Assembly (NCBI GenBank): GCA_015493585.1
Contig: WGCW01000134.1
Coordinates: 1-25,738 of the forward strand
Length of the DNA stretch: 25,738 nt
Reading direction: 5' to 3'
Source: Acidobacteriota bacterium
GTDB lineage: Bacteria > Acidobacteriota > Thermoanaerobaculia > Thermoanaerobaculales > Sulfomarinibacteraceae
The position numbers were made by a program, and so were the translations under genes. Shown piece after piece: positions 8,370-25,738 of the stretch. A model generated the notes under the pieces. The model worked only from the letters and a program-made list of their open reading frames with translations. It made no database searches and had not been told where the DNA came from. Position 1 is the first letter of the stretch. Each line of letters opens with the position of its first letter.

Positions 8370-10219
8370 ACGTCATCCTCCAACGCCATCAATTCCTGTG
8401 CCGCGACCATCTCCGAGAAGGCCCCCCCGGCACGCAGGAGCTCCGCGTGAGAACCCCGTTCGATGATTCGGCCGTCACGCAGTACGACGACCAGGTCGGC
8501 GTTGCGTACAGTCGTCAGCCGGTGGGCGATGACCAGGCTCGTTCTCCCACGCATCAGGTTCTCCAGTGCGTGCTGCACGAGCCGTTCTGCCTCGGTGTCG
8601 AGCTGCGATGTCGCCTCATCGAGAATCAGCAGCGGCGGATTCTTGAACAGCGCGCGGGCGACCGCGATCCGCTGCCGTTCTCCACCCGACAGTTTGAGCC
8701 CCGACTCCCCAATGACGGTCTCGTATCCGTTCGGAAGAGCCATGATGAAATCGTGGGCGTAGGCTGCCTTGGCCGCCGCCTCGATCTCATCCTGAGGTGC
8801 ATCCTCCTGACCGAAGGCAATATTCTTCCGGACCGTGTCGTTGAACAGGATCGTTTCCTGAGTCACCAGGCCAATCTGTGCGCGCAGGCTTTTCAAAGTA
8901 ACATCGCGCACATCCTTTCCGCCGAGGCGGATCGCTCCCTTCTGAACATCCCAAAAGCGCGGGATGAGCTGGGCAATCGTGCTCTTGCCCGCACCAGATG
9001 CCCCAACGATGGCGACGGATTGCCCCGCCCGAATGTCCAGATCGATATCCTTGAGCACCCAGCTCTCGTCTTCGTAGGCAAACCAGACGTGATCGAGGTG
9101 GACGCCATCGCCAATCCCGTCAAGTTCCCCGGCTCCAGGTTTGTCCTGAACTTCGACGGGGGCATCGAGCACTTCGTAGACCCGCTCCGAGGCGACGATC
9201 GCTTGCTGCAAGGCCAGATTGAACTTGTTCAGGCGCTTGATCGGGTTATAGGCGCCGTACACACCGAGCAGGAACGCCGAGAAATCCCCCAGCGTCATCG
9301 CGCCCGAGGCGATCTGGTGCGAGGCATACCCGATCAGGGCCAGAGCGCCGAGCGAGCCGATGATCTCCATCACGGGGGCGTTGGCCGCCTGGATCGCCCG
9401 CGCCTTGAGATTCGCCCAGAAGTGACGGTGCGTCGCCGACCGGAACCGCTTCGCCTCGAACTCTTCCATGCCGAAGGCCTGCACGACCCGGATACCCTTG
9501 ATCGTCTCGTCCAGTATGGCGGTCAAGTCTCCCATCCTCTCCTGCGACTGGCGGGACCGCCTCCTCAAATGCCGGGAGAAGTGGATGACCGGCGCTAACA
9601 AAATTGGCGCGAGTACGAGCGTGACGAGCGCCAGGCGGAAGTTCAACGAAAAGACGTAGACCAGCAGCACGACCACCGTCAGGCTGTCCTGCAGCAGATC
9701 GCCCAGCCGTTCCGCCAGCGCCTCGTGAATCACTTTGACATCGTTGACCACTCTGGCGATCAAGACTCCGGAGGGGATCTCGTGGAAAAAACGGGGGCTC
9801 TGGCGCAGGAGCGCATCACCAATGGCGTTGCGGAGATCGCGGATCGTGGCAAGCCCAAGCTGGGCGATCGAATACCTCGCCACAAACGTGAAGACATTCT
9901 TGATCACGATCGCCAAGAAAACCAGGACGAGCACCGTCGCCCTGCTCTTGCCAACGACCTTCCCGAGCCATGCCTCTGCCCGGTGCGAGGCCCGGTCGAG
10001 ATCACCGACGAACCCTTTCTTCGGGATCGGAATCTTCGACGTCTCGTGCACCCGCGTGGTGCTCGTGCCATGAAGGACACTGTCGTAGATCGGCCGGATC
10101 AGGTTGTAGGCGAAGACGGTCGATGATGCGACGAGGATCATACTGACGAACGCCACACCGATCCAGCCTGCATGCCGCTTCGCAACCCCAAGGACCCTGA
10201 GAAAGCTCCGCATGGACAC
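8366..10219 (-). CDS. ABC transporter, fused permease and ATP-binding protein of the MsbA/multidrug-exporter type, 617 aa.
   Basis: The N-terminal half holds a six-helix TMD. The NBD has Walker A GASGAGKST, the signature LSGGERQRIAVARAL, Walker B LLILDEATSQLD and an H-loop. The ORF opens with GTG at 10219. An in-frame ATG at 10213 is an equally plausible start, and there is no clear SD. Confidence 0.9.
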   Translation of the reverse strand: MSMRSFLRVLGVAKRHAGWIGVAFVSMILVASSTVFAYNLIRPIYDSVLHGTSTTRVHETSKIPIPKKGFVGDLDRASHRAEAWLGKVVGKSRATVLVLVFLAIVIKNVFTFVARYSIAQLGLATIRDLRNAIGDALLRQSPRFFHEIPSGVLIARVVNDVKVIHEALAERLGDLLQDSLTVVVLLVYVFSLNFRLALVTLVLAPILLAPVIHFSRHLRRRSRQSQERMGDLTAILDETIKGIRVVQAFGMEEFEAKRFRSATHRHFWANLKARAIQAANAPVMEIIGSLGALALIGYASHQIASGAMTLGDFSAFLLGVYGAYNPIKRLNKFNLALQQAIVASERVYEVLDAPVEVQDKPGAGELDGIGDGVHLDHVWFAYEDESWVLKDIDLDIRAGQSVAIVGASGAGKSTIAQLIPRFWDVQKGAIRLGGKDVRDVTLKSLRAQIGLVTQETILFNDTVRKNIAFGQEDAPQDEIEAAAKAAYAHDFIMALPNGYETVIGESGLKLSGGERQRIAVARALFKNPPLLILDEATSQLDTEAERLVQHALENLMRGRTSLVIAHRLTTVRNADLVVVLRDGRIIERGSHAELLRAGGAFSEMVAAQELMALEDDV

Positions 10220-10414: not shown

Positions 10415-10536
10415 AGAAACCCACGTAACAGGCCGGCTGGCAAACCGTCTCTACCCCCTTGTGCCTCTGTTCTCCTCTTCTCTCTGCGCTGCCGCGATCT
10501 CCCAAGTTAGATTCTCCAGATGAATTTTCACGAGAT

Positions 10537-10557
10537 GGGGACAGTGTCGAATATTCG
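10537..10557. promoter_or_regulatory. Conserved 21-mer GGGGACAGTGTCGAATATTCG containing the palindrome CGAATATTCG. It recurs at 18959-18980.
   Basis: The 16-mer GGGGACAGTGTCGAAT is identical at both sites, and both carry a CGAAT(N0-1)ATTCG dyad. Confidence 0.45.
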
Positions 10558-10686
10558 GGACTAGCGTGTCTCTTTCCCCCCTTCCAGAAGAGTTTCTCGC
10601 AGAGAACGCCGCGACCGCGGAGGGGAGGTTCATGCCTGGGCAGTCGTGACGGTCTTGGGTGGCGTCGCGTGCAATCCGTAGCATTG

Positions 10687-10828
10687 CCCCCCCGGCCCAG
10701 ATTCTTCGTCGGCTTCACCTCCTCAGAATGACAGCCGGAGGGAAGGCGACGCCTCCTCAGAATGACACTTCCCCCTGTCATCCTGAGCGGCGTGCCGAAG
10801 GCTCGCCGCGAAGGATCTGGGAGGGGGC
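10687..10828. repeat. Short member (3a) of the repeat family. A variant left inverted repeat CCCAGATTCTTCGTCGGCTTCACCTCCTCAGAATGACA is followed by one unit and the hairpin CTCAGAATGACA-CTTCCCCCT-GTCATCCTGAGC, then the right end GGCGTGCCGAAGGCTCGCCGCGAAGGATCTGGGAGGGGG.
   Basis: Read directly. It is the same architecture as 2177-2547, with AGA in place of AGG in the core. Confidence 0.8.
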
Positions 10829-10844
10829 CAAAGTTGGGGACGGT

Positions 10845-11170
10845 CTTGCACTCATCTCGGCCTTCCTCTGCGAACCTCCGCGTTCTCTGCGGTTAGGTTC
10901 TCCCTGCGGCCGTCCCCCACCCAGATTCTTCGTCGGCTTCGCCTCCTCAGAATGACATTGGGGGGAAGGCTGTGCCTCCTCAGAATGACATTGGGGGGGA
11001 AGGCTGTGCCTCCTCAGAATGACATTGGGGGGAAGGCTGTGCCTCCTCAGAATGACGCCTCCCCCTGTCATCCTGGGCGGCGTGCCGAAGGCTCGCCGCG
11101 AAGGATCTCGCCTCCGCAAAATGACAGGGGGGCTTCGCCTCCGGCTCACGATGACAAGGGAGGGAAGGCC
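10845..11170. repeat. Member 3b of the repeat family. The leader CTCTGCGAACCTCCGCGTTCTCTGCGGTTAGGTTCTCCCTGCGGCCGTCCCCCA and the left inverted repeat CCCAGATTCTTCG precede a tandem array of three 33/34-nt units CCTCCTCAGAATGACATTGGGG(G)GAAGGCTGTG. Then come the hairpin arm CCTCCTCAGAATGACGCCTCCCCCT-GTCATCCTGGGC, the right inverted repeat and two further degenerate units (AAATGACAGGGGGG, CTCACGATGACAAGGGAGG).
   Basis: The leader matches 2177-2232 at about 90%. Units begin at 10950, 10983 and 11017. Confidence 0.85.
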
Positions 11171-11272
11171 CCGCCTGTGCGCTTCATGCCTCTTCCCACC
11201 GGTCTCGCACAGCTGAAGAAGCGACAGGCAGCGCAACAACCTCTCTTCACCTCAGGTTTCACCCGCTTCGGA

Positions 11273-11278
11273 TAAGAT
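11273..11278 (+). promoter_or_regulatory. Candidate -10 hexamer TAAGAT lying 6 nt upstream of the recD2 GTG start, possibly giving a leaderless or very short-leader transcript.
   Basis: The sequence is GATAAGATGTTGAG-GTG. No convincing -35 was found. The same hexamer is used upstream of pilT and the radical-SAM gene. Confidence 0.25.
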
Positions 11279-11284
11279 GTTGAG

Positions 11285-13501
11285 GTGGTACAGCAAGGTG
11301 ATCTGGCCGGGAAAACGTCCGGCGACGCGGTGGCGGTCGTCGAAGGCGCCGTCAGCCGCGTCATTTACGCCAACGACGAGAACGGATGGGCGGTAATCTC
11401 GATTCGTCCAGATGACGGCGAAACGCTCACAGCCGTTGGCTCGCTCCTCGGCGTCCGGGTGGGCGACCGCCTGCGGATGACGGGCTCTTGGCGCCGTCAC
11501 GAGAAGTACGGCCGTCAGCTCGCCGTTGAAAGCTTTGTCCACATCGACCCAACGACGAAATCAGGCATCCGCAAGTATCTCGCCTCTGCCAAGATTCCTG
11601 GCATCGGGCCCGTGACGGCGGAACGTCTTGTCAAACGTTTTGGAACCGGTACGCTGCACGTGCTGGAGCACGAACCGGACCGGCTGACCGAAGTCCCCGG
11701 CATCGGGCCAAAAACCGCCAGAAAGATCCGTGAGGGCTGGAGCAAGGTCCGGGGGCTCCAGGAGATCATGGTGTTCCTTCAAGGGCACGGTGTCTCCCCT
11801 TCCGTGGCGCTCAAGGCGTACAAAAAGTACGGTTCCACCGCTCTCAAGGTGGTCCGGGACAATCCGTACCGCCTCGCCGGGGAGCTGTTTGGCGTCGGCT
11901 TCTTGACCGCGGACCGCATCGGCAGAAACCTCGGCATTCCTGTGGACGCACCGCAGCGGCTGGAGGCGGGTCTGTTGTACGTGCTTGCTGAAGCCGCCGG
12001 AAACGGACATGTTTACCTGCCAGCGAACGTCCTCCGCAAGCGCGCGGCAGAGTTGCTCGAGGTCGAGCCGGATGAGCTCGTGACCGCGCTCAATACATTG
12101 GTGCAGAAGGGTCTCGTCGTCTCCGAGCCCGTCGATGACGGTGAGGGGTTCTGGTTGCCCCGGCTCTACAAAGCAGAACAGCGGACCACCGAGCGGCTGG
12201 CCGAACAGCTGACGTCCGAAACGGCAAAGATCGACATTGACACCGGCCGTGCGATCCCGTGGTACGAGCGCACGAGCGGCATCACGCTCGGCGATGTCCA
12301 GCGCCGCGCCCTCGCCGAGGCCCTGACCGGCAAGCTGCTGATCATCACCGGCGGGCCCGGCACCGGCAAGACGACACTGATTCGCGGGCTCGTACAGATC
12401 CTCTCGCGTAAGGACCAGACGATCCTCCTCGCGGCGCCGACGGGCAGGGCCGCCAAGCGGCTCAGCGAAACGACCGGCCTAGCCGCGAGAACGATCCACC
12501 GCTTGCTCGAGTTCAACCCTGTGACCAGAACCTTTGGGCGGTGCCGGGAGACGCCGCTCGCAGCCGACGTCCTCGTGATCGACGAGGTCTCCATGCTCGA
12601 CATCGAGCTTGCCGCACATCTGCTCGACGCGGTGCCACCGGCGTGCCGAATCGTCTTCGTCGGCGACGCGGATCAGCTCCCCTCCGTGGGGCCGGGCGAT
12701 TTCTTGCGGGACCTGGTCGGCTCGCGGCTCGTGCCCGTAGTCCGCCTCGACACGATCTACCGCCAGTCCGCCGGCAGTCTGATCGTCGTTAACGCGCACC
12801 GGATCAACCGTGGGGAGATGCCGCTATTGCCCGAAAGCGGCCGCCTGACCGACTTTTACGTCATCAACCGGGATGATCCTGAGGCTGCGGCAAAAACGGC
12901 TCTGGATCTCGCCACGCACCGCATTCCGGCGCGCTTCCGGCTCGATCCAGTCGACGACATTCAGGTTCTGGCGCCGATGCACAGGGGCGAGCTCGGCGTC
13001 ATCGAGATGAATGACCGGCTCCGGCGGGCGCTCAACCCCTCCGGGCCCGAGCTCGTCTTCGGCTCCAGGCGGTTCCGCGTGGGCGACAAAGTCATGCAGA
13101 TCCGGAACAACTACGAGCTTGACATCTATAACGGCGATATCGGCCGGGTCAGCACCATCGATCCGGAGAATCTGACAGTCACGGTCGATTTCCAGGGCCA
13201 CGTCGTGCCGCTCGCACGGGAGGACCTCGACGATCTCGTGCTCGCGTACGCCGTGACAATCCACAAGTCACAAGGTTCCGAGTACCCCGCGGTCATCATT
13301 CTGCTCCACCACCAGCACTACGTGATGCCCGAGCGCAATTTGTTGTACACGGCGGTCACCCGCGGAAAACGGCTCGTCATCATCGTTGGGAGCCGGCGGG
13401 CGCTCGTCCGCGCCGTCTCAAACGCAACCCACCGGATCCGCTACACCCGGCTTGCCGCCCGTCTCACCGGGGCGCTCGCTGACCGCTCCCGCTCGACGTA
13501 A
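11285..13501 (+). CDS. recD2: RecD2-like SF1B ATP-dependent DNA helicase (RecD/TraA family), 738 aa.
   Basis: An N-terminal OB-like domain is followed by HhH repeats (GIGPVTAERL, GIGPKTARKI). Walker A is LLIITGGPGTGKTT, Walker B is VLVIDEVSMLD, and the C-terminal motifs are YAVTIHKSQGSEY and LLYTAVTRGKRLVIIVG. The first in-frame start is the GTG at 11285, directly after a TAA, so the exact start is uncertain. Confidence 0.88.
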   Translation: MVQQGDLAGKTSGDAVAVVEGAVSRVIYANDENGWAVISIRPDDGETLTAVGSLLGVRVGDRLRMTGSWRRHEKYGRQLAVESFVHIDPTTKSGIRKYLASAKIPGIGPVTAERLVKRFGTGTLHVLEHEPDRLTEVPGIGPKTARKIREGWSKVRGLQEIMVFLQGHGVSPSVALKAYKKYGSTALKVVRDNPYRLAGELFGVGFLTADRIGRNLGIPVDAPQRLEAGLLYVLAEAAGNGHVYLPANVLRKRAAELLEVEPDELVTALNTLVQKGLVVSEPVDDGEGFWLPRLYKAEQRTTERLAEQLTSETAKIDIDTGRAIPWYERTSGITLGDVQRRALAEALTGKLLIITGGPGTGKTTLIRGLVQILSRKDQTILLAAPTGRAAKRLSETTGLAARTIHRLLEFNPVTRTFGRCRETPLAADVLVIDEVSMLDIELAAHLLDAVPPACRIVFVGDADQLPSVGPGDFLRDLVGSRLVPVVRLDTIYRQSAGSLIVVNAHRINRGEMPLLPESGRLTDFYVINRDDPEAAAKTALDLATHRIPARFRLDPVDDIQVLAPMHRGELGVIEMNDRLRRALNPSGPELVFGSRRFRVGDKVMQIRNNYELDIYNGDIGRVSTIDPENLTVTVDFQGHVVPLAREDLDDLVLAYAVTIHKSQGSEYPAVIILLHHQHYVMPERNLLYTAVTRGKRLVIIVGSRRALVRAVSNATHRIRYTRLAARLTGALADRSRST

Positions 13502-16649: not shown

Positions 16650-17723
16650 CTAGGAGATGAACATCGCATCTCCATAGGAGAAGAACCGGTAGCGCCGAAG
16701 GACGGCCTGGCGGTAGGCTGCCAGCGCATGCTCACGACCGGCAAAGGCGCTAACGAGCATCAGGAGCGTCGACTTCGGCCAGTGGAAGTTCGTCAGCAAC
16801 CCGCCAAGCCCTTGAAAGTGAAAGCCCGGCGTGATGAACAGGCGGCTCCATCCTGATCCCGGGCGCAGCATCCCGCCTCCTGTGATCAGACCAGTCTCGA
16901 GGGTCCGGACCGCCGTCGTACCCACACACACGATCCGCCGCTGGCTGGCGAGGGCGCGGTTGATCGTGCGGCTGGCCCCTTCCGTGATTTCGTACCACTC
17001 CGCGTGCATCGTGTGATCTTCGATCCGCTCGACGGTGACGGGCCGGAAGGTGCCGATCCCGACGTGGAGGGTCACCTGGGCAATCTCGATCCCGCGGGCC
17101 GCGATCTCCTCGAGCATCTCGTGCGTCAGGTGCAGGCCAGCGGTTGGGGCGGCTACGGCTCCAGGCTTATCGGCGAAGACCGTCTGGTACGCTCGCCTGT
17201 CATCCTCCGTGGCGCCGTCCGGCCTGTGGATGTACGGGGGAAGCGGCGGTTGACCCAATGCATCGAGCCGCTCGAGGTCGAGCGCCGGCACGCAGCGGAT
17301 CCGCCAGCGCCCCTCACCAAGCCGTTCCTCGGGCACGAGGGCACCACCGTCTGGAAGGTGGAGCTCTTCCCCGGGCCGGGCCCTCGCTGACGGGCGCAGC
17401 AGCGCTTCCCACCGCTCCTCGTCCAGCGCTTTGAGGAGGAGCACCTCGAACGTCCGGCCCGTCGCGCGCTGGGCGCTCAGACGTGCGGGGAGCACCTTCG
17501 TGTCGTTGAGCACGAGCACATTGCCCGGCACGAGCAGGGTGGGAAAGTCGGCCACGCGCCGGTGCCCAACCGCTCCGGTACGCCGGTCCAGCGTCATCAT
17601 CCTCGCAGTTCCCCGCGGCCGGGGGGCCTGCGCAATCAGCTCGGGAGGCAGCTCGTAGTCAAACTCGCTCGTCCGCACCGGCGCATCATACTCCGGCAAA
17701 GGCCCGGAGAAAGGCGGTGACAC
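16650..17723 (-). CDS. queA: S-adenosylmethionine:tRNA ribosyltransferase-isomerase QueA, 342-357 aa.
   Basis: FDYELPPELIAQAP, VLVLNDTKVLPARL and LHLTHEML...HVGIGTFRPV are hallmark QueA blocks. The ORF begins with GTG at 17723. A second in-frame GTG at 17678 (V16, with GGAG 14 nt upstream) would give the more typical N-terminus VRTSEFDYELP. Confidence 0.88.
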   Translation of the reverse strand: MSPPFSGPLPEYDAPVRTSEFDYELPPELIAQAPRPRGTARMMTLDRRTGAVGHRRVADFPTLLVPGNVLVLNDTKVLPARLSAQRATGRTFEVLLLKALDEERWEALLRPSARARPGEELHLPDGGALVPEERLGEGRWRIRCVPALDLERLDALGQPPLPPYIHRPDGATEDDRRAYQTVFADKPGAVAAPTAGLHLTHEMLEEIAARGIEIAQVTLHVGIGTFRPVTVERIEDHTMHAEWYEITEGASRTINRALASQRRIVCVGTTAVRTLETGLITGGGMLRPGSGWSRLFITPGFHFQGLGGLLTNFHWPKSTLLMLVSAFAGREHALAAYRQAVLRRYRFFSYGDAMFIS

Positions 17724-18980: not shown

Positions 18981-19174
18981 GCACATCTCATCCGCCAGAA
19001 TCGCTCACCTTCGGTTTGATTCGGGCATCTTCGTGCTGGGCATGCCGGGATTATAGACAAACGAGCGTTCCCCCCGGCGTTCTTACCGTCCTTTATGCGA
19101 AACCTCTTTGTGGGGAGCAGAATCATCCTCTCGTGTCCTGCCGATTCGAAGGGGCGAGCCTAGTCCACGGGATG

Positions 19175-19407
19175 CCCCCCACCCAGATCCTTCGCCTTCG
19201 GCTCAGGATGACAAGAAAAGTGGAATGGCTCAGGATGACAAGAAAAGTAGAATGGCTCAGGATGACAAGAAAAGTAGAATGGCTCAGGATGACGCGGACG
19301 AGGGATCATTCCGAGGAGGAGAAGTCATCGTTTCCCCTGTCATCCTTGAGGACAAACTATTCTTTCCCCTGTCATCCTGAGCCGAAGGCGAAGGATCCGG
19401 GTGGAGG
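19175..19407. repeat. Repeat-family member 4. The left inverted repeat CCCCCACCCAGATCCTTCGCCTTCG precedes three 27-nt units GCTCAGGATGACAAGAAAAGT(G/A)GAATG and a degenerate unit. Then come the arm TCATTCCGAGGAGGAGAAGTCATCG, 2x CCCCTGTCATCCT(T)GAG, and the right inverted repeat CCGAAGGCGAAGGATCCGGGTGGAGG.
   Basis: Units begin at 19202, 19229 and 19256. The ends are inverted-complementary (19182-19200 vs 19384-19400). Confidence 0.9.
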
Positions 19408-19494
19408 ACCACCCGAAGCTGCCCGCTTCTGCAGTTCTCTGCGAGAGGCCATGGCACTCACGGCTGACCGGTCATTGAACTGGTCTGCACCTCC

Positions 19495-19566: not shown

Positions 19567-21504
19567 ATGGGTACGATGCCGGAATACATCGGGCACTACC
19601 GCATCATTTCGGAGATCGGCCGGGGTGGGATGGGCGTGGTCTACAAGGCGGAGGAGGAATCGCTCAACCGGTTCGTCGCCGTCAAGGTCCTGGGAGAGCA
19701 CCTCACTCAGGACGCCACTTATGTAACCCGTTTTCAACGTGAAGCTCAGGCTGCCGCGCGGCTCAATCATCCAAACATCGTGCAGATCTACTTCATCGGC
19801 GAGGATAACGGCCGCCACTACTTCGCCATGGAATTCGTCGAGGGTCAGAGCCTTCAGGAGATACTCCGGACCAGGGACCACCTGCCTGCGGACGAAGCGG
19901 CGCGGCTCATGTTGCAGGCGGCCTCCGGGCTCGGCGTTGCCCACGCCGCCGGCATCATCCACCGGGACATCAAGCCGGCGAACCTCATGGTGACGAAGGA
20001 CGGCCAGCTCAAGATCACCGACTTCGGCCTCGCCCGCCCCACGGAGGCGGCCACCCGGCTGACCGCCACCGGGATGCTCATGGGGACACCGGCATATCTG
20101 GCACCGGAGCAGTGCCTCGATCAAACGATCGATCAGCGTGCCGATATTTTCTCCCTCGGCGTGACGTTCTTCGAAATGCTCACCGGCCGCCGGCCGTTCG
20201 AGGCAAATTCCCCGGTCGCACTGCTCAAAGTGATCGCCGACGCAGCGCCACCCGATCTCACGCTCGTCTCACCCAGCCCGGACAATCCACTCCGGCGCAT
20301 CCTCGAGCGCATGCTCGCCAAGGACCCGGCCGCACGCTACCAGAGCTGCTCCCAGCTCATATCAGACCTCTCGCGCTGGCTCGAAACATCGGCACCCGGC
20401 TCAGCGGCGCGCGAGGCGATGATCCCACCCCCGCTCCCGGGGATGCCGGGAAGCGGGATCACCCCCGAGGCACTCGAACAGACCCCGACGATCCACGTCG
20501 ACTCCGCCGCCAGCCAGCAGCCCGTTCCTCCCGTTCCGCCACCGCTCTCGCCGCCGGAACCACAACAACCGGCGCCTGGGCGCAACCACACGGGCGTCTG
20601 GGTTGCCCTTGGCATTGTGCTGCTCATCGCCGTCCTCGCCACGGCGGGGGCCGTCGCCTGGCATGCCGGGATCTTTCAGAGCATGGCAGCTCTGATGCCC
20701 GGCCACGCCCGGCAGGCGGCGGCCGTCACCCAACCACCGGCTGAAAACGAGGCCAACCAGTCACCGGCCGCAACACCGGTGGCGGACCAGGTCACCGCTC
20801 CGGACACCTTCGTCGACACCAGCGGCATCGAGGTCAGGTCCGGCCGGACCAGAACCTCGACTCCAAAAGCAGGCCACGGAGCTGGAACCGGAGCCGTCAG
20901 CGGTCCCCGGGTCACCCGCCGCCAGGAAGGCCGGTCTTCCTCGGAGATCGCGGGGACTGGAGCATCCACAAAGGCCTTGGCCGGATCCGCAGCAGCGACG
21001 GTTCCAGGCGGCAGGCCCGGCCGGACCGGAGCTCCTCCAGCCGAACCTCCGGCGCCGCGCCCAACTGGGATCGCCGTCATCGCCGTTGGTGAACCGGTGA
21101 TCGCAAGCGCGGCCGAACAGTACCTGACGTCGCGGCTGCGCGAGGCGGGCCTGAGGATCCTGACCGGCCGCGATATTCCGGCTCTCGACGGAGTGCTCTC
21201 GAGCTCACAGACCCCCTCGACCGGTGAGATCATCGACCATCTCTCCGGCAATGTCGCGGCCGCCGTCATCGTGCGGGCAACCTACCTCGGCTCACGCCAG
21301 TTGATCTACATGGGTCAGACCGGCCAGGCCTACCAGTCCCGTCTCGATCTCCAGTGCATCGACCTCATCTCCGGCTCCGGGCTCATGCCGGCATGGACGA
21401 AAACCGTCGAGTACACCCGGGTTCGCACCGACCGCACTGCCGCTAAGAACCTCGCTAACGTCGCTGACCGCCTGATCGGCGTGCTCGAGCAACGATCGCG
21501 GTAG
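19567..21504 (+). CDS. Hanks-type Ser/Thr protein kinase, 645 aa. The domains are a kinase domain, a Pro-rich linker, a single TM and an extracytoplasmic C-terminal domain of about 270 aa of unknown family.
   Basis: Motifs are GRGGMGVVYKA (G-loop), VAVKVL (VAIK), HRDIKPANLMV, DFGLAR and GTPAYLAPEQ. The TM segment is VWVALGIVLLIAVLATAGAVAW. RBS GGGAGG lies 8 nt before the ATG. The C-terminal domain (IAVIAVGEPVIASAAEQYLTSRLREAGLRIL...) is not one I can name. Confidence 0.92.
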   Translation: MGTMPEYIGHYRIISEIGRGGMGVVYKAEEESLNRFVAVKVLGEHLTQDATYVTRFQREAQAAARLNHPNIVQIYFIGEDNGRHYFAMEFVEGQSLQEILRTRDHLPADEAARLMLQAASGLGVAHAAGIIHRDIKPANLMVTKDGQLKITDFGLARPTEAATRLTATGMLMGTPAYLAPEQCLDQTIDQRADIFSLGVTFFEMLTGRRPFEANSPVALLKVIADAAPPDLTLVSPSPDNPLRRILERMLAKDPAARYQSCSQLISDLSRWLETSAPGSAAREAMIPPPLPGMPGSGITPEALEQTPTIHVDSAASQQPVPPVPPPLSPPEPQQPAPGRNHTGVWVALGIVLLIAVLATAGAVAWHAGIFQSMAALMPGHARQAAAVTQPPAENEANQSPAATPVADQVTAPDTFVDTSGIEVRSGRTRTSTPKAGHGAGTGAVSGPRVTRRQEGRSSSEIAGTGASTKALAGSAAATVPGGRPGRTGAPPAEPPAPRPTGIAVIAVGEPVIASAAEQYLTSRLREAGLRILTGRDIPALDGVLSSSQTPSTGEIIDHLSGNVAAAVIVRATYLGSRQLIYMGQTGQAYQSRLDLQCIDLISGSGLMPAWTKTVEYTRVRTDRTAAKNLANVADRLIGVLEQRSR

Positions 21505-21553
21505 GCTCGCTGCGGAACACCGGAACGCTTGGGGAGAAGCCGCTCGCAAAGCC

Positions 21554-21562
21554 TGCTATCCT
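21554..21562 (+). promoter_or_regulatory. Candidate extended -10 (TGcTATCCT) ending 8 nt before the ATG at 21571, which would make the nuclease mRNA leaderless.
   Basis: The TGn + TAnnnT geometry is read directly. No SD precedes 21571. Confidence 0.25.
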
Positions 21563-21570
21563 TCCGGGCG

Positions 21571-22407
21571 ATGGGTACGCCTGGATCTCACCCGACCCCG
21601 GTCAACGTCTTTTCCTTCTCCCGGCTCAAGGCGTTTATGCAATGTCCGCTGCGCTACAAACTCCGCTACCTCGACGGGCGTAGGGAGGCGTTCCGGTCGA
21701 TTGAGTCGTACCTCGGCAACGTGGTTCACGAAGTCCTCGAATGGATGTACGCCCGCCGCATGGAGGACCGGACGCCCGCGCTCGACGCGATCCTCGATGA
21801 GTTCGCGCACCGGTGGCAGGCTTCGTGGTCGGAGGAGGTCGCCGTCATCAGGGTCGGCAACGATCCAAAAGACAGCTACCGCGTCGGCCGTGAAATGCTG
21901 ACGACGTTCTACCACCAGGTTTACATCCACGATCTCAGCACGACCGTCGCGCTGGAGCAACGGCTCCATGCGCGTCTCGGCGAAGGCCTCGCATTCACCG
22001 GCTTCGCCGACCGGATCGGCCGGACCGCCCGGGGCCAGCTCTTCGTCGTTGACTACAAAACCTCTTCGCGTGAGGGCAACGGCGACGATTTCTCCGAAGG
22101 GCTGCAAGCGCCGCTCTACGCCGCCAGCGTCCTCGACCGGCACGGAGATGCCTCGTGCCTGGCGGGCTACCACTACCTTCGCTTTGGAACGACAAACTGG
22201 AGCACCGTCACCCGCGAGTCCGGCCGCACACTCCGGGATCGCTTCACCGCCATGGCCCGTCAGGCGCTCCTCGCGACCGATTTCCCGCCACGGCCTGGCG
22301 TGCTCTGCGCCTGGTGCGGCTTCAACCGGATCTGCCCCGCTGCCCAGGTGCCACCACAGCTCTCCGGCGGCCTCAATCCGCCACCCGAAGCCCTGCGGCC
22401 GCTGTAG
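21571..22407 (+). CDS. Cas4-like / RecB-family PD-(D/E)XK nuclease with a 4-Cys cluster, 278 aa from the ATG at 21571 or 292 aa from the TTG at 21529.
   Basis: The N-terminal FSFSRLKAFMQCPLRYKLRYL is the Cys-bearing AddB/Cas4-type motif. VVDYKTS is the D-x-K catalytic block. The C-terminal CAWCGFNRIC supplies three more Cys, giving a C...CxxC...C [4Fe-4S] arrangement as in Cas4/AddB. It is stand-alone, with no helicase fused and no cas neighbours. Confidence 0.8.
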   Translation: MGTPGSHPTPVNVFSFSRLKAFMQCPLRYKLRYLDGRREAFRSIESYLGNVVHEVLEWMYARRMEDRTPALDAILDEFAHRWQASWSEEVAVIRVGNDPKDSYRVGREMLTTFYHQVYIHDLSTTVALEQRLHARLGEGLAFTGFADRIGRTARGQLFVVDYKTSSREGNGDDFSEGLQAPLYAASVLDRHGDASCLAGYHYLRFGTTNWSTVTRESGRTLRDRFTAMARQALLATDFPPRPGVLCAWCGFNRICPAAQVPPQLSGGLNPPPEALRPL

Positions 22408-22422
22408 CCCAGCCCCCCCGTT

Positions 22423-22432
22423 CTGTGTAAGA
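22423..22432 (+). promoter_or_regulatory. Candidate -10 TGTGTAAGAT (TAAGAT at 22427-22432) for the radical-SAM/PTPS pair. A leader of about 46 nt ends in GGGGGATGAAGGGA.
   Basis: The 10-mer is identical to the one upstream of pilT (2697-2706). Confidence 0.3.
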
Positions 22433-22485
22433 TGGCACCCCCGCGCGGTCCCGACGGCCGGACCGGGGGATGAAGGGACACCCAG

Positions 22486-25014
22486 ATGCCAGAGTACACG
22501 CCCCTGCACGGCTCCGTCCGCGCGGCGCTCGACGCGATTCTTCCCCGCGTGATGAAGCCCGCCCGCTATCTCGGGCTGGAGCGGAATCTCGTGCGGAAGG
22601 CGTGGGACAGTGTTGCGATCCACGTCGCGCTGGCGTTCCCCGATACGTACGAGATCGGCATGTCCCATCAGGGTTCCCGGATCCTCTATCACCTGGTCAA
22701 CCGCCGTCCGGACGCCCTGGCCGAGCGGACCTACGCGCCGTGGGTCGACATGGCCGCAATGATGCGGGAGCACCGGGTCCCGCTGTACACGCTGGAATCG
22801 TACCGGCCGGTCCGTGATTTCGACGTCGTCGGGATCACGCTCCAGTCCGAGCTCAACTACATCAACGTGCCGTACCTCCTCGACCTCGGCGGTTTGTCCC
22901 GGCGGGCGGCCGATCGCCGGGAGGATGAGCCGATCGTCGTGGGCGGTGGACCGTGCATGGCCAATCCAGAACCGGTCGCCGCCTTCTTCGATGCGATGCT
23001 GATCGGAGACGCCGAGGCGGCTCTCGATCAGATCCTCGACACCATCCGCTCGGCGCGCGAGGCCGGTAGCTCGCGGCTCGGGCTGTTGCGGCGGCTGGCC
23101 GGCATCCCCGGGGTCTACGTGCCCCGGCTGTACCGCTTCGCTGGGAACGGCGCGGAAGGCGTTGCAACCGCCGCCGGGCCGGACGTGCCATACCCCGTCC
23201 AGCGGGTCTGGACGCCACACCTCGACGCCGCCGATCAGCCGGAAGTGCCGATCGTTCCGTTCGCCGGCGTCATCCAGGATCGCCTCGGCATGGAGATCAT
23301 GCGCGGCTGCACACGCGGCTGCCGCTTCTGCCAGGCGGGCTTCTGGTACCGGCCGGTCCGGGAGCACGACCCGGCCGTCATCGCCGAACGCCTGCAGCGC
23401 CAGGCCAGCGAGACCGGGTTCGAGGAAGTCGGCCTCCTGAGCCTCTCCTCGGCCGACTACTCGCAGATCTCACCGCTGGTAGCCACCCTCGCGGCGCGCT
23501 TTGAGGACCGCCGCGTCTCGGTCAGCCTGCCGAGCCTCAGAGCCGACGCATTTTCCGTCAACCTCGCCGATGCTGTCTCCCGCGTTCGCAAGTCGGGGTT
23601 CACCTTTGCCCCGGAGACCGGCTCGGACCGGCTGCGCCGCGTCATCAACAAGACCTTTACCAACGACGAGGTGATCGAGGCTGCCGGCGCCGCGTTTGCC
23701 AAGGGATGGAACCTCCTCAAGCTGTACGCGATGATCGGCCTGCCCACCGAAACCGGCGAGGACCTCCGCGAGCTGGCTGGCCTTGTCCGGAAGCTCGTCG
23801 CGCTCGGGCAAAGGATTCGTGGCCGGCGGGTCGAGGTTAAGCTCTCGGTTGGCTCCTTCATCCCGAAGCCTTGGACGCCGTTCCAGTGGGAGCCGTTTGG
23901 GCCGGTCGACGCTCTCGAACGCAAGATCGCACTGCTCCGCGACGAGCTCCGGCGCGTACGAGGTGCACGGATGACCTGGAACGATCCACATCAGGCCGCT
24001 CTCGAAGCGCTGCTGTCCCGTGGCAGCCGGGCGTTGACCCCAGCCATCGAGCGCGCGTACGAGCTCGGAGCCGTCTTTGACGGGTGGTCCGATCAGCTCA
24101 ACCTCGATGCCTGGGACCGGGCGTGCGCCGAAACCGGCATCGACCGTGAGGCCGAGCTCGGCCCGCGCAGCCTGACCGCCTCGCTTCCGTGGGACGTCAT
24201 CGCGCCCGGCGTCCGCAAGGGCTACCTCAAGGCCGAACGGCGCCGCGCGTTGAACGAAACCGTCACAGGTGACTGCAAGTGGGGCGCCTGCACCCATTGC
24301 GGCATCCCGGGCGATGGCAACGACATCGACCTCGCTCCGGCGACCCTCGCACCGCCCACTGCCCGCCGCCCGGCAATCCGCACCGGGGAGCGAACAGCGC
24401 CGGCCGCCTCCAGACGCGTCCGGATCACCTTTTCCAAGACCGGCGACGCGCGCTTCCTCTCCCATCGCCAAGTCATGGACGCTCTGGAACGGGTCCTGCG
24501 GGCCGCACAGATTCCGGTCCGGTTCACCGGCGGTTTCAACCCCCACATCCGGCTGTCGATGGGGCCGGCGCTGCCGCTCGGCTATGAGGGGCTGGCCGAA
24601 GCGTTCGACATCGAGTGCACAGCTCCACTGCGTCCCGCGCACCTCGAAAGGATCAACGCCAAGCTGCCAGACGGCCTCCGGCTGACCGGAATGACGAGCC
24701 TCCTTCCGGGCGCTCCATCGCTCGGCAAGCTGGCGGCGGCCGCCCGCTACCGGATCAAGCTGCCGGATGGCGCTCCGCCGCTGCGGCGCGAGGCGATCCC
24801 GGACGAGCTCAGACCCGGCGTACAGCTTTGGAAAGAGCTCGAAGGAGGAGCAATCCGAGTGCAGCTCAACCTCCGGCAGCAGGAGGGACCCGCGCCCACC
24901 GTGAGGACCCTGCTGACGGCGCTGGGCGTCCCGGAAACCGGTCAGGCGGCCGCTCGCATCACGCGGGAGGCCGTGATCCTCAAACCAAGAGCCAGATCGC
25001 GGGAGGCCTCATGA
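22486..25014 (+). CDS. Large radical-SAM protein, 842 aa. It appears to be a single-polypeptide fusion of a B12-binding-domain/radical-SAM enzyme (TIGR03960-like) with a radical-SAM-linked DUF2344 (TIGR03936-like) C-terminal domain.
   Basis: CTRGCRFCQAGFW is the CxxxCxxC radical-SAM cluster motif at about residue 275. The N-terminus (VAIHVALAFPDTYEIGMSHQGSRILY) resembles a cobalamin-binding-like Rossmann module. The C-terminal block RVRITFSKTGDARFLSHRQVMDALERVLRAAQIPVRFTGGFNPHIRLSMGPALPLG matches the DUF2344 profile, which I recall usually being a separate adjacent gene. Confidence 0.88.
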   Translation: MPEYTPLHGSVRAALDAILPRVMKPARYLGLERNLVRKAWDSVAIHVALAFPDTYEIGMSHQGSRILYHLVNRRPDALAERTYAPWVDMAAMMREHRVPLYTLESYRPVRDFDVVGITLQSELNYINVPYLLDLGGLSRRAADRREDEPIVVGGGPCMANPEPVAAFFDAMLIGDAEAALDQILDTIRSAREAGSSRLGLLRRLAGIPGVYVPRLYRFAGNGAEGVATAAGPDVPYPVQRVWTPHLDAADQPEVPIVPFAGVIQDRLGMEIMRGCTRGCRFCQAGFWYRPVREHDPAVIAERLQRQASETGFEEVGLLSLSSADYSQISPLVATLAARFEDRRVSVSLPSLRADAFSVNLADAVSRVRKSGFTFAPETGSDRLRRVINKTFTNDEVIEAAGAAFAKGWNLLKLYAMIGLPTETGEDLRELAGLVRKLVALGQRIRGRRVEVKLSVGSFIPKPWTPFQWEPFGPVDALERKIALLRDELRRVRGARMTWNDPHQAALEALLSRGSRALTPAIERAYELGAVFDGWSDQLNLDAWDRACAETGIDREAELGPRSLTASLPWDVIAPGVRKGYLKAERRRALNETVTGDCKWGACTHCGIPGDGNDIDLAPATLAPPTARRPAIRTGERTAPAASRRVRITFSKTGDARFLSHRQVMDALERVLRAAQIPVRFTGGFNPHIRLSMGPALPLGYEGLAEAFDIECTAPLRPAHLERINAKLPDGLRLTGMTSLLPGAPSLGKLAAAARYRIKLPDGAPPLRREAIPDELRPGVQLWKELEGGAIRVQLNLRQQEGPAPTVRTLLTALGVPETGQAAARITREAVILKPRARSREAS

Positions 25015-25433
25015 GCCGCTGGGTCGTGCACAGCCGAGCTGCATTTCACGCGCGCCACGCGCTCGCCCGGTACCGGGGTGAGCCTGAGCATCCGCACGAG
25101 CACCGGTGGAAGGTCGCCATCGAGGCCGGTTTCGAGAGCCTGACCGACGAAGGGTACGCGGCCGACTTCAGTTCGGTCCATGCCCTGCTTCGCTCGCTCG
25201 TCGCCCCGCTCGACGGAAGCGATCTTAGTCAGCACCCCGAGATCGGCGTCCCCTCCCCGACGGCCGAACGCCTCGCCGAATTTCTCGCATCCCGCCTCGC
25301 CGCCCCGCTCGGCGCCCTCGGCGGGCGCCTCCTGACGATCAGCGTCTGGGAAGGTCCTGACAACCGTGTCGACTACCATCCCGATCCAGGTCCCTCCGCC
25401 GGGCTCGAGAACTCGGAGCAGCGCTCAGGCTGA
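25011..25433 (+). CDS. 6-pyruvoyl-tetrahydropterin synthase / QueD-like (T-fold) protein, 140 aa, that lacks the catalytic Cys.
   Basis: AFHARHAL...EPEHPHEHRWKVAIEAG...ADFSSV...LTISVWEGPDNRVDYHP shows the His/HxH zinc triad and the layout of the PTPS/QueD family. The position of the QueD CxxxHGH cysteine is taken by EPEHPHEH. The start forms a 4-nt ATGA overlap with the radical-SAM stop, and GGGAGG lies 4 nt upstream. Confidence 0.7.
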   Translation: MSRWVVHSRAAFHARHALARYRGEPEHPHEHRWKVAIEAGFESLTDEGYAADFSSVHALLRSLVAPLDGSDLSQHPEIGVPSPTAERLAEFLASRLAAPLGALGGRLLTISVWEGPDNRVDYHPDPGPSAGLENSEQRSG

Positions 25434-25461
25434 CCTGGCCGTGAAGGCCTTGAGATTCCGT

Positions 25462-25738
25462 CCCCCCCGCCCAGATCCTTCGCCTCCGGCTCAGGATGAC
25501 CGGGGGAAGTGGCATGGCTCAGGATGACCTGGGGAAGTGGCATGCCTCAGGATGACCGGGACAGTGGAAGGGCTGAAGATAGCCCTGAAAGGGTTGTGCG
25601 ACTCACGACAACGACTGAGGGCGACATTCCGAGGAGACGAAGCGCGCCCTTTCCCTGTCATTCCGAGGAGGCGAAGCCATTCCTCCCTTGTCATCCTGAG
25701 TCGCTCAATCCTCCTACTGTCATCCTGAGTCGCGTGCC
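25462..25738. repeat. Repeat-family member 5; the window ends inside it. The left inverted repeat CCCCCCCGCCCAGATCCTTCGCCTCCG precedes three 28-nt units GCTCAGGATGACCGGGGGAAGTGGCATG (variants), a unique core, GACATTCCGAGGAG / CCCTGTCATTCCGAGGAGG arms, and 2x GTCATCCTGAGTCGC.
   Basis: Units begin at 25481, 25509 and 25537. The tail matches element 1 at 1-60. Confidence 0.85.

Follow-up and report, generated by a model that had tools for sequence, protein, structure and literature searches.

The block studied here occupies positions 19567-25433 of contig WGCW01000134.1, of which positions 1-25,738 were analysed and are referred to as the window. It holds four open reading frames, all of which were confirmed on the plus strand with the domains that the original prediction had assigned to them. 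The features of the block and of its immediate flanks are as follows.

19168-19418, no strand: composite repeat with 46-nt inverted termini and four 27-nt tandem units starting GGCTCAGGATGAC
19567-21504, plus strand: Hanks-type Ser/Thr protein kinase of 645 aa (Pkinase, 191.9 bits, residues 11-262)
21529-22407, plus strand: stand-alone RecB/AddB/Cas4-type PD-(D/E)XK nuclease (PF12705 PD-(D/E)XK_1, 119.7 bits)
22486-25014, plus strand: TIGR03960 radical-SAM protein fused to TIGR03936/DUF2344, 842 aa (Pfam and NCBIfam)
25001-25014, plus strand: translational coupling signal, with GGGAGG at 25001-25006 and the ATG at 25011-25013 overlapping the TGA at 25012-25014
25011-25433, plus strand: PTPS-family T-fold protein of 140 aa (PF01242 PTPS, 77.9 bits)
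25457-25738, no strand: further copy of the composite repeat, reaching the end of the window (repeat search)

The kinase was described as a transmembrane Ser/Thr kinase, and this agrees with its full, Hanks-type Pkinase domain and the single hydrophobic or transmembrane segment near residues 343-365; its C-terminal part is a domain without an assigned function. The nuclease is 292 aa long, or 278 aa if translation starts at the ATG at 21571, which is the start chosen by the gene callers. An alignment of 15 orthologs showed that C39, C260, C263, C269, D161, D175-Y-K177 and Q193...Y197 are invariant, and since both the catalytic motifs (D, D-x-K and QxxxY) and the four cysteines are preserved next to the PF12705 match, a Cas4/AddB-like Fe-S nuclease is a fair label for this protein. 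The gap between the kinase and the nuclease is 24-66 nt, depending on the nuclease start, and the nuclease is separated from the radical-SAM gene by 78 nt.

The arms of the upstream repeat (19168-19213 and 19370-19415) are 89% complementary. The same composite repeat recurs at 1-91, 2215-2553 and 10690-11176, giving at least five intergenic sites in the window, and the window contains 33 copies of its core motif CTCAGGATGAC, where 0.67 are expected. The block had been proposed to be bounded by repeats, and repeats do indeed lie at both of its flanks; however, because the element is dispersed across the window, it does not mark the edges of an island. A scan of the window at the Rfam gathering thresholds returned no family for the repeats or for anything else, no tRNA was found in the window, and a literature search with the repeat core sequence retrieved unrelated primers only.

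Conservation of the gene neighborhood

The original prediction had considered the four genes as one undescribed system, which would be refuted if they were never syntenic outside this genome. We examined 63 related genome loci that carry the radical-SAM and PTPS-like genes, nearly all from the Thermoanaerobaculia (Acidobacteriota), and none had a match to the kinase or the nuclease in tblastn searches at E<=1e-5, with enough flanking sequence for the nuclease in 50 of the loci and for the kinase in 43. In the closest genome, where the radical-SAM protein is 81% identical (locus L001), the upstream open reading frame is response-regulator-like. The proposal of a four-gene unit thus fails on the very test that was set for it, because there is no synteny in the related loci.

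The nuclease is found in other surroundings. Seven orthologs with 58-81% identity (tblastn) have no radical-SAM or PTPS gene nearby, and their neighbors include NIF3, UvrC and SAM_HAT. Two metagenome-assembled genomes carry the nuclease and the radical-SAM/PTPS pair on separate contigs (L148 versus L005 and L151 versus L035). A homolog of the kinase C-terminal domain is located directly upstream of the nuclease ortholog in two loci, L147 (72% identity over 53 aa) and L148 (51% over 133 aa), and is absent near the nuclease in five loci with more distant orthologs; the pairing of the kinase with the nuclease is confined to the nearest relatives. The nuclease had also been taken as a hint of a nucleic-acid-directed function, but it adds no evidence about the radical-SAM/PTPS pair.

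One could still imagine a repeat-bounded island of four genes acting as a single nucleic-acid-directed or defense-type system. The common strand, the short gaps of 24-78 nt, the plus strand on which no terminator-like site was found and the repeats at both flanks would fit such an island, as would the matches of the PADLOC kinase models PD-T4-6 and mad6 to the kinase and the weak matches of Cas4 models to the nuclease. Yet the synteny is absent in the 63 genome loci, the nuclease orthologs are located elsewhere and the flanking repeat is also present at other intergenic sites of the window. The PADLOC kinase matches fall mainly on the generic kinase domain, most models aligning with residues 7-280; PADLOC has no match for the radical-SAM or the PTPS-like protein, and we did not count the kinase and Cas4 matches as evidence for defense. 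The window showed no sign of an integrase, a transposase, a cas gene or a CRISPR array. A mobile or defense island would be expected to have terminal repeats specific to the unit, a conserved gene content and mobility or defense genes, none of which was found here. We therefore regard such an island as extremely improbable. In our view, the proposed four-gene system does not exist and is not worth pursuing as a defense or modification island.

The radical-SAM fusion

The only widely conserved unit of the block is the radical-SAM enzyme, tightly coupled to the PTPS-like gene. The enzyme exceeds the curated NCBIfam cut-offs for both TIGR03960 (654.4 bits, cut-off 462.3) and TIGR03936 (130.2 bits, cut-off 71.9), has the CxxxCxxC motif, and matches Radical_SAM_N2 (191.6 bits), Radical_SAM (80.5 bits) and DUF2344 (115.4 bits) in Pfam. 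The description of a fused B12/radical-SAM and DUF2344 enzyme is accurate for the last two parts; the Pfam B12-binding match is below the threshold (20.2 versus 32.1 bits), and the B12 label for this reason derives mainly from the name of the NCBIfam family. Three features within the fusion are of interest here.

23308-23331, plus strand: radical-SAM cluster motif C275-x3-C279-x2-C282 (MRGCTRGCRFCQAG), from the translation
24274-24300, plus strand: second cysteine triad C597-x4-C602-x2-C605, nearly invariant (>=90%) in the family alignment
24391-25011, plus strand: DUF2344 domain of residues 636-842, modeled as a TruA-like pseudouridine-synthase fold and lacking a conserved Asp

The cysteines C275, C279 and C282 are invariant in an alignment of 33 diverse family members, and the second triad may serve as an auxiliary site for a metal or a cluster. 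The DUF2344 domain is modeled as a TruA-like pseudouridine-synthase fold. Because the family alignment has no conserved Asp anywhere in the domain, it probably serves to bind RNA and not to make pseudouridine.

The fusion had been called giant, but it is typical of its family, a very large one with 3284 cluster representatives at E<=1e-30. Among the best 150 of these, nearly all are 800-1000 aa long with 38-63% identity, and the matches extend from the N-terminus into DUF2344. In other phyla the gene is usually followed by the gene for RNase E/G and then by rplU, rpmA and obg; among the loci from other lineages with at least 1.5 kb of downstream sequence, 37 of 54 encode RNase E/G next in the same orientation, as opposed to none of the 66 loci of the Thermoanaerobaculia type. 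Literature searches for DUF2344, TIGR03960 and TIGR03936 yielded no functional study, only a remark on the Pfam clan, and one combining radical-SAM proteins with RNase G, rplU and obg gave no relevant result.

The modeled fold of DUF2344 and the gene neighbors point to an RNA target of the TIGR03960 proteins. A radical-SAM enzyme with a nucleic-acid substrate, RNA in this case, is plausible, and to this extent the suggestion of a nucleic-acid-directed function survives, although it draws no support from the nuclease. One hypothesis is that the fusion is an RNA-modifying enzyme, in which the pseudouridine-synthase-like domain would bind the RNA and position a nucleotide for the 5'-deoxyadenosyl radical generated at the [4Fe-4S] cluster to act on. 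TIGR03960 combined with DUF2344 is among the larger radical-SAM families without a known function, and both the fold and the RNase E/G-ribosomal neighborhood would direct the search for its substrate toward RNA.

The PTPS-like protein and its coupling to the radical-SAM gene

The small protein encoded by the last gene had been described as a PTPS/QueD-like protein without cysteine, and it does match PF01242 and contain no Cys at all. Its zinc ligands are H16, H29 and H31, a Glu (E26) is located at the site of the catalytic Cys, and E114 is the conserved Glu of the C-terminal part; H16, E26, H29, H31, D52 and E114 are invariant in the family, and D71 and H75 are near-invariant and specific to this subfamily. 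The closest solved structure is PH0634 from Pyrococcus horikoshii (2dj6), with an E-value of 1.1e-9 and a Foldseek TM score of 0.89. The T-fold and the three zinc-binding His of the PTPS-III enzymes are thus present, and since PTPS-III-type enzymes look like this, the absence of Cys is no oddity. The strict PTPS-III signature is ExxHGH (PMC5041015), and the motif reads E-D-V-H-G-H in PH0634, E-H-P-H-E-H in the window protein and a canonical E-P-L-H-G-H in the copy at locus L071; the Glu and both His are invariant across the family and the Gly position is variable, so the protein does not carry the signature in its strict form. Furthermore, the Asp-His dyad is missing, with LDG aligned to the LDH of PH0634. 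Judged by these residues, the protein is PTPS-III-like but unclassified, and because the Asp-His dyad is absent its chemistry may differ from that of PTPS-III. A putative PTPS-III relative from the Rickettsiales (L063) was set aside since its motif, C-R-T-M-H-G-H, is that of QueD, and it is uninformative on this subfamily.

The translational coupling noted in the original prediction, with its ATGA overlap at 25011-25014, is both present and widely conserved. We counted neighborhoods by distance and mapped the junctions directly from the stop and start codons. In all 60 informative loci the PTPS-like gene immediately follows the radical-SAM gene, with overlapping stop and start codons in 51 of them (by 4 nt in 43 and by 1 nt in 8), a 1-nt gap in 7, a 47-nt gap in one and an unplaced start in one (L054). 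Pair 2 is a translationally coupled two-gene operon across the Thermoanaerobaculia. The surrounding genes vary, the commonest upstream being fmt (30 loci) and rsmB (27 loci) among the 43 loci with more than 6 kb of upstream sequence. The stop/start overlap is far better conserved than any other adjacency at these loci. A search with the PTPS HMM across 80 diverse metagenome radical-SAM loci gave matches in L067 and L071 only, the orthologous fusions of other phyla had no PTPS neighbor in any of the 54 loci offering 1.5 kb or more of downstream sequence, and none of 267 representatives was a fusion of the radical-SAM and PTPS proteins.

We think it likely that the block is made up of two gene pairs, independent of each other and side by side in this population alone, in a genome dotted with a dispersed intergenic repeat, and that the enzymes of pair 2 are co-expressed and have different substrates. 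Pair 1 would then comprise the kinase and the nuclease, and pair 2, formed by the radical-SAM fusion and the PTPS-like gene, would most likely represent two co-transcribed housekeeping enzymes that act on separate substrates. If the coupling is not functional, the PTPS-like gene probably just fills the place of FolB in the folate pathway of these Acidobacteriota; the Acidobacteria are among the phyla listed as being without folB, with PTPS-III as the substitute (PMC4674097). Alternatively, the gene might encode the QueD (6-carboxytetrahydropterin synthase) of queuosine biosynthesis, in association with the QueA gene 7 kb upstream (16650-17723, minus strand), which would be in line with the QueD model matching weakly (E 1e-12) and with the structural closeness of E. 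coli QueD (TM 0.84). But the Cys of the CxxxHGH motif is missing, the family keeping a Glu one position later, the score of 48.3 bits is well short of the cut-off of 89.25, and QueA is on the opposite strand with several genes in between and is not conserved near the pair. A QueD function is therefore very improbable.

What speaks against independent functions within pair 2 is that the conservation of the overlap exceeds what the mere co-transcription of unrelated genes would need. A direct functional link between the two proteins is possible, and we have considered that they might cooperate, perhaps as a complex, in a pathway specific to the Thermoanaerobaculia and a sister lineage. It is conceivable that the DUF2344 domain holds an RNA on which the T-fold protein binds a group resembling guanine, a pterin or 7-deazaguanine, or else that the T-fold protein makes a substrate or cofactor, derived from a pterin, that the radical-SAM reaction uses. 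Some T-fold enzymes do use RNA-bound bases as substrates, an example being the archaeosine synthase QueF-like. In addition to the adjacency in all 60 loci and the 51 overlaps, cooperation is favored by the persistence of the link in L071, a locus with a radical-SAM protein of only 51% identity and a PTPS copy of the canonical motif, and by the remodeled PTPS active site, which has neither the Cys nor the Asp-His dyad and has acquired the near-invariant D71 and H75. On the other hand, the fusions of other phyla are linked to RNase E/G with a PTPS neighbor in 0 of 54 loci, the nearest relatives (L068 and L069, 55-57% identity) are without one as well, and none of the 267 representatives has the two proteins fused. 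Overlapping stop and start codons are hard to lose once formed, and their persistence may be a matter of inertia. On balance we find cooperation unlikely, and are equally doubtful that the divergent T-fold protein is an obligate TIGR03960 partner in an undescribed RNA-directed or pterin/deazapurine-type modification in the Thermoanaerobaculia and at least one sister lineage. If it were true, the pair would offer a first lead to what this very large orphan radical-SAM family acts on, and the coupling, if functional, is a testable clue to the chemistry of TIGR03960. The suggestion that the locus encodes an uncharacterized chemistry stands in the sense that neither of the two genes has a known function. 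All in all, the coupled radical-SAM/PTPS-like unit is mildly interesting, and the four genes are found side by side in one bacterial lineage only.

Comparison with known enzymes

The nuclease shares PF12705, the D...D-x-K and QxxxY motifs and the C...CxxC...C pattern with the nuclease domains of AddB/AdnAB and Cas4. In contrast to these, it is a stand-alone protein of about 280 aa with a helicase neither fused nor adjacent. It does not qualify as a CRISPR-associated Cas4, because the TIGR00372 Cas4 model gave 24.9 bits against a cut-off of 65, the window has no CRISPR-like array and no cas family is among the Pfam matches of its open reading frames.

The radical-SAM fusion has the three-part architecture, the CxxxCxxC motif, the second cysteine triad and the full-length match of the TIGR03960/TIGR03936 family, whose two parts are either fused or neighbors, with 38-46% full-length identity to members from the Thermodesulfobacteriota, Latescibacteria and others. 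It differs in its context; the genes of the Thermoanaerobaculia precede a coupled PTPS-like gene, whereas those elsewhere precede RNase E/G-rplU-rpmA-obg. Its DUF2344 domain departs from the TruA-family pseudouridine synthases in the conserved Asp.

The PTPS-like protein resembles QueD and PTPS-I (CxxxHGH) in the fold and the zinc site and is distinguished from them by the lack of the catalytic Cys and a score under the curated cut-off. PTPS-III is the COG0720 subfamily that takes over from the dihydroneopterin aldolase FolB in folate synthesis, forming 6-hydroxymethyl-dihydropterin from dihydroneopterin triphosphate. The likeness to PTPS-III, as represented by PH0634 and the Plasmodium PTPS, goes further; in the Plasmodium enzyme a Glu is the catalytic residue, as the titles of the PDB entries for the E37A and E37C mutants state. 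The likeness includes the T-fold and the three zinc-binding His, the Glu three residues ahead of the first His of H-x-H in place of the Cys of QueD and PTPS, the C-terminal WEG...N.V motif of PH0634 and an origin in a phylum reported to lack folB (PMC4674097). The differences are that the Gly of HGH is not conserved (H-E-H in the window), that the LDH dyad is replaced by LDG or variable residues while D71 and H75 are near-invariant and new, and that the gene is always coupled to a radical-SAM gene, a coupling that is not reported for PTPS-III in PMC5041015 and PMC5445326.

Two gene pairs among copies of a dispersed repeat

The original prediction described a repeat-flanked system of four genes sharing a strand, and its observation of the open reading frames was accurate, as confirmed by ORF and domain matches.

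Genes of the block and copies of the composite repeat
19567-21504, +, Ser/Thr kinase, 645 aa, one hydrophobic segment; Pkinase 191.9 bits
21529-22407 (gene-caller start 21571), +, PD-(D/E)XK nuclease; PF12705 119.7 bits
22486-25014, +, radical-SAM fusion, 842 aa; Radical_SAM_N2 191.6, Radical_SAM 80.5, DUF2344 115.4 bits; NCBIfam TIGR03960 654.4 bits (cut-off 462.3), TIGR03936 130.2 bits (cut-off 71.9)
25011-25433, +, PTPS-like protein, 140 aa, without Cys; PF01242 77.9 bits
1-91, 2215-2553, 10690-11176, 19168-19418, 25457-25738, intergenic, composite repeat

The Pfam B12-binding match in the radical-SAM fusion was sub-threshold (20.2 vs 32.1 bits). The ATGA overlap predicted between the last two genes was recovered, with GGGAGG at 25001-25006 and an ATG at 25011 that overlaps the TGA at 25012-25014. 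The remaining intergenic gaps in the block measure 24-66 nt and 78 nt, and no terminator-like site was found on its + strand.

Repeat elements do lie on both sides of the block (19168-19418 and 25457-25738), but they are not its borders, as the same element is present at 1-91, 2215-2553 and 10690-11176. The composite repeat has inverted termini of ~40 nt (CCCCCGCCCAGATCCTTCGCCTTCGGCTCAGGATGACA and its complement), found in each flanking element together with internal tandem units of 27-28 nt (27-33 nt across copies) beginning GGCTCAGGATGAC. The window holds 33 copies of the core motif, where 0.67 would be expected; the repeat had no Rfam match, and outside the source contigs its motif was seen among related loci only in L039. 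It is a dispersed, genome-wide intergenic repeat, and resembles a MITE or REP element.

The nuclease has a conserved set of orthologues of its own among these bacteria (55-82% identity); in 15 of them C39, C260, C263, C269, D161, D175-Y-K177 and Q193...Y197 are invariant. It is an AddB/Cas4-type enzyme with an iron-sulfur-type Cys motif; its match to the Cas4 model was under the cut-off (24.9 vs 65 bits). Among solved structures, it comes closest to the nuclease domains of a mycobacterial helicase-nuclease of UvrD/REP type, which we take to be AdnAB. A RecD2-type helicase is encoded 8 kb upstream (11285-13501, +), not adjacent to this stand-alone nuclease.

Neither a radical-SAM nor a PTPS gene was located near the nuclease orthologue in any of seven loci, where the neighbours include NIF3, UvrC, SAM_HAT and TauE. 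Two metagenome-assembled genomes (MAGs), CAZXXL01 (L148 and L005) and CAZKGM01 (L151 and L035), each carry the nuclease on one contig and the radical-SAM/PTPS pair on another. Partial genes directly 5' of the nuclease are homologous to the kinase C-terminal domain in the two closest orthologue loci (L147 2-175, 72% over 53 aa; L148 1-693, 51% over 133 aa), not in the five more distant ones. Kinase and nuclease therefore constitute another unit, of shallow conservation, and the window holds two gene pairs side by side.

Conservation of the radical-SAM/PTPS operon

A PTPS-like protein identical to that of the window is encoded in GCA_027039845.1 (JALUMN010000452) and in a further two assemblies from the same population, and almost all its relatives come from Thermoanaerobaculia or Holophagae MAGs of the Acidobacteriota. 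Taking one genome per species, we collected 63 PTPS-side loci and searched them by tblastn with all window proteins. The radical-SAM fusion was directly 5' of the PTPS-like gene in 60 of these, and the three exceptions are uninformative: contigs end in L013 and L062, and L063 was rejected as a family member, being an unrelated QueD with CxxxHGH. The stop and start codons overlap by 4 nt (43 loci) or 1 nt (8), or are separated by 1 nt (7) or 47 nt (1); the start in L054 was not placed. The predicted coupling is thus a real, conserved operon. The four-gene system, however, was refuted by the very neighbourhood analysis proposed for it, since neither kinase nor nuclease gave a match at E<=1e-5 in the 63 loci (50 with room for the nuclease, 43 for the kinase).

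In L001, the genome most similar to this one (81% identity in the radical-SAM protein, 74% in PTPS), a response-regulator-like ORF is found upstream instead. The genes around the pair vary between loci; divergently upstream are fmt (30/43) and rsmB (27/43) in loci with >6 kb upstream, and downstream are an Fe-S/CCG membrane protein (36 loci) and MutY (28). The product of fmt, Met-tRNA formyltransferase, is a folate-dependent enzyme. Four loci labelled Methylomirabilota, Chloroflexia, Chondromyces and Deltaproteobacteria (L010, L020, L043, L046) carry a Thermoanaerobaculia-type pair with 57-67% PTPS identity, and probably represent mis-binned contigs rather than gene transfer.

In the source contig reaching past the window end (L064), gene callers predicted a 313-aa protein without Pfam match (8861-9802), which starts ~110 nt past the PTPS stop, within the repeat element, and is probably spurious. 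Further downstream (10466-12700, -) is a 744-aa fusion of aminotransferase class V (NifS/selenocysteine-lyase-like) and AIRS/AIRS_C (SelD-like).

The radical-SAM enzyme with and without a PTPS neighbour

From 1.84 billion cluster representatives, 3284 radical-SAM family members were recovered at E<=1e-30. The best 150 of these are nearly all 800-1000 aa and match from the N-terminus into DUF2344 (38-63% identity); named members, from Thermodesulfobacteriota, Latescibacteria and others, are annotated solely as "TIGR03960 family". No fusion to PTPS was seen in 267 representatives. A metagenome scan with a diverse radical-SAM alignment gave 80 loci, two of which were matched by the PTPS-family HMM: L067, a Thermoanaerobaculia-like locus with 64% identity in the radical-SAM protein, and L071 (51%), where a PTPS copy with canonical E-P-L-H-G-H begins 14 nt past the stop. 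The same HMM found no PTPS at the nearest relatives, L068 and L069 (55-57% identity). In other lineages the conserved downstream neighbour is RNase E/G (PF10150): of the 54 loci that extend 1.5 kb or more past the radical-SAM gene, 37 encode it in the same orientation. After it come rplU, rpmA and obg, and rodA and PBP2 lie upstream; RNase E/G was present in none of the Thermoanaerobaculia-type loci.

The most economical explanation of the operon is co-transcription, in the Thermoanaerobaculia, of two enzymes with housekeeping roles: a radical-SAM enzyme that would modify RNA and a PTPS-III-like enzyme that would act in the folate pathway. This rests mainly on the orthologous radical-SAM enzyme, which in most phyla works without a PTPS neighbour. 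The same fact speaks against a direct functional link between the two proteins, which we consider rather unlikely; in favour of such a link are the near-universal stop/start overlap, the pairing in a second lineage (L071) and the remodelled PTPS active site.

Predicted chemistry of the two enzymes

Our literature search found no published function for the radical-SAM family. C275, C279 and C282 are invariant in the family alignment. A second set of three Cys (C597/C602/C605, C-x4-C-x2-C, 24274-24300), nearly invariant, is found between the radical-SAM core and DUF2344 and may bind zinc or an auxiliary cluster. Modelling of the DUF2344 domain (residues 636-842) reached a pLDDT of 92.4. Because the family alignment holds no conserved Asp in it, the domain more probably serves to bind RNA than to catalyse pseudouridine formation. 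This reading and the RNase E/G-ribosomal neighbourhood make RNA the best inference for the substrate.

The PTPS-like family (24 members) has invariant H16, E26, H29, H31, D52 and E114 and nearly invariant D71 and H75. The queuosine-synthesis enzyme QueA, a tRNA ribosyltransferase-isomerase, is encoded 7 kb away on the opposite strand (16650-17723, -; Pfam Queuosine_synth 400.9 bits), and its presence near the pair is not conserved in other genomes. Of solved structures, PH0634 (2dj6; profile E 1.1e-9, Foldseek TM 0.89) comes closest; its sequence has W-E-D-V-H-G-H and the same WEG.DN.V motif at the C-terminus. The known motifs are ExxHGH in PTPS-III and CxxxHGH in QueD (PMC5041015); the E26-x-x-H29-x-H31 of our protein has Glu at the PTPS-III position and lacks the Cys of QueD. 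Glu37 is given as catalytic in the titles of PDB entries for mutants of Plasmodium vivax PTPS. PTPS-III takes the place of FolB, and the phyla listed as lacking folB include the Acidobacteria (PMC4674097). However, the Gly of HGH is variable in the family, and at the position of the Asp-His dyad (LDH in PH0634) the family has LDG or varies. Because of these differences we do not assign the protein to PTPS-III; it represents an unclassified, PTPS-III-like subfamily.
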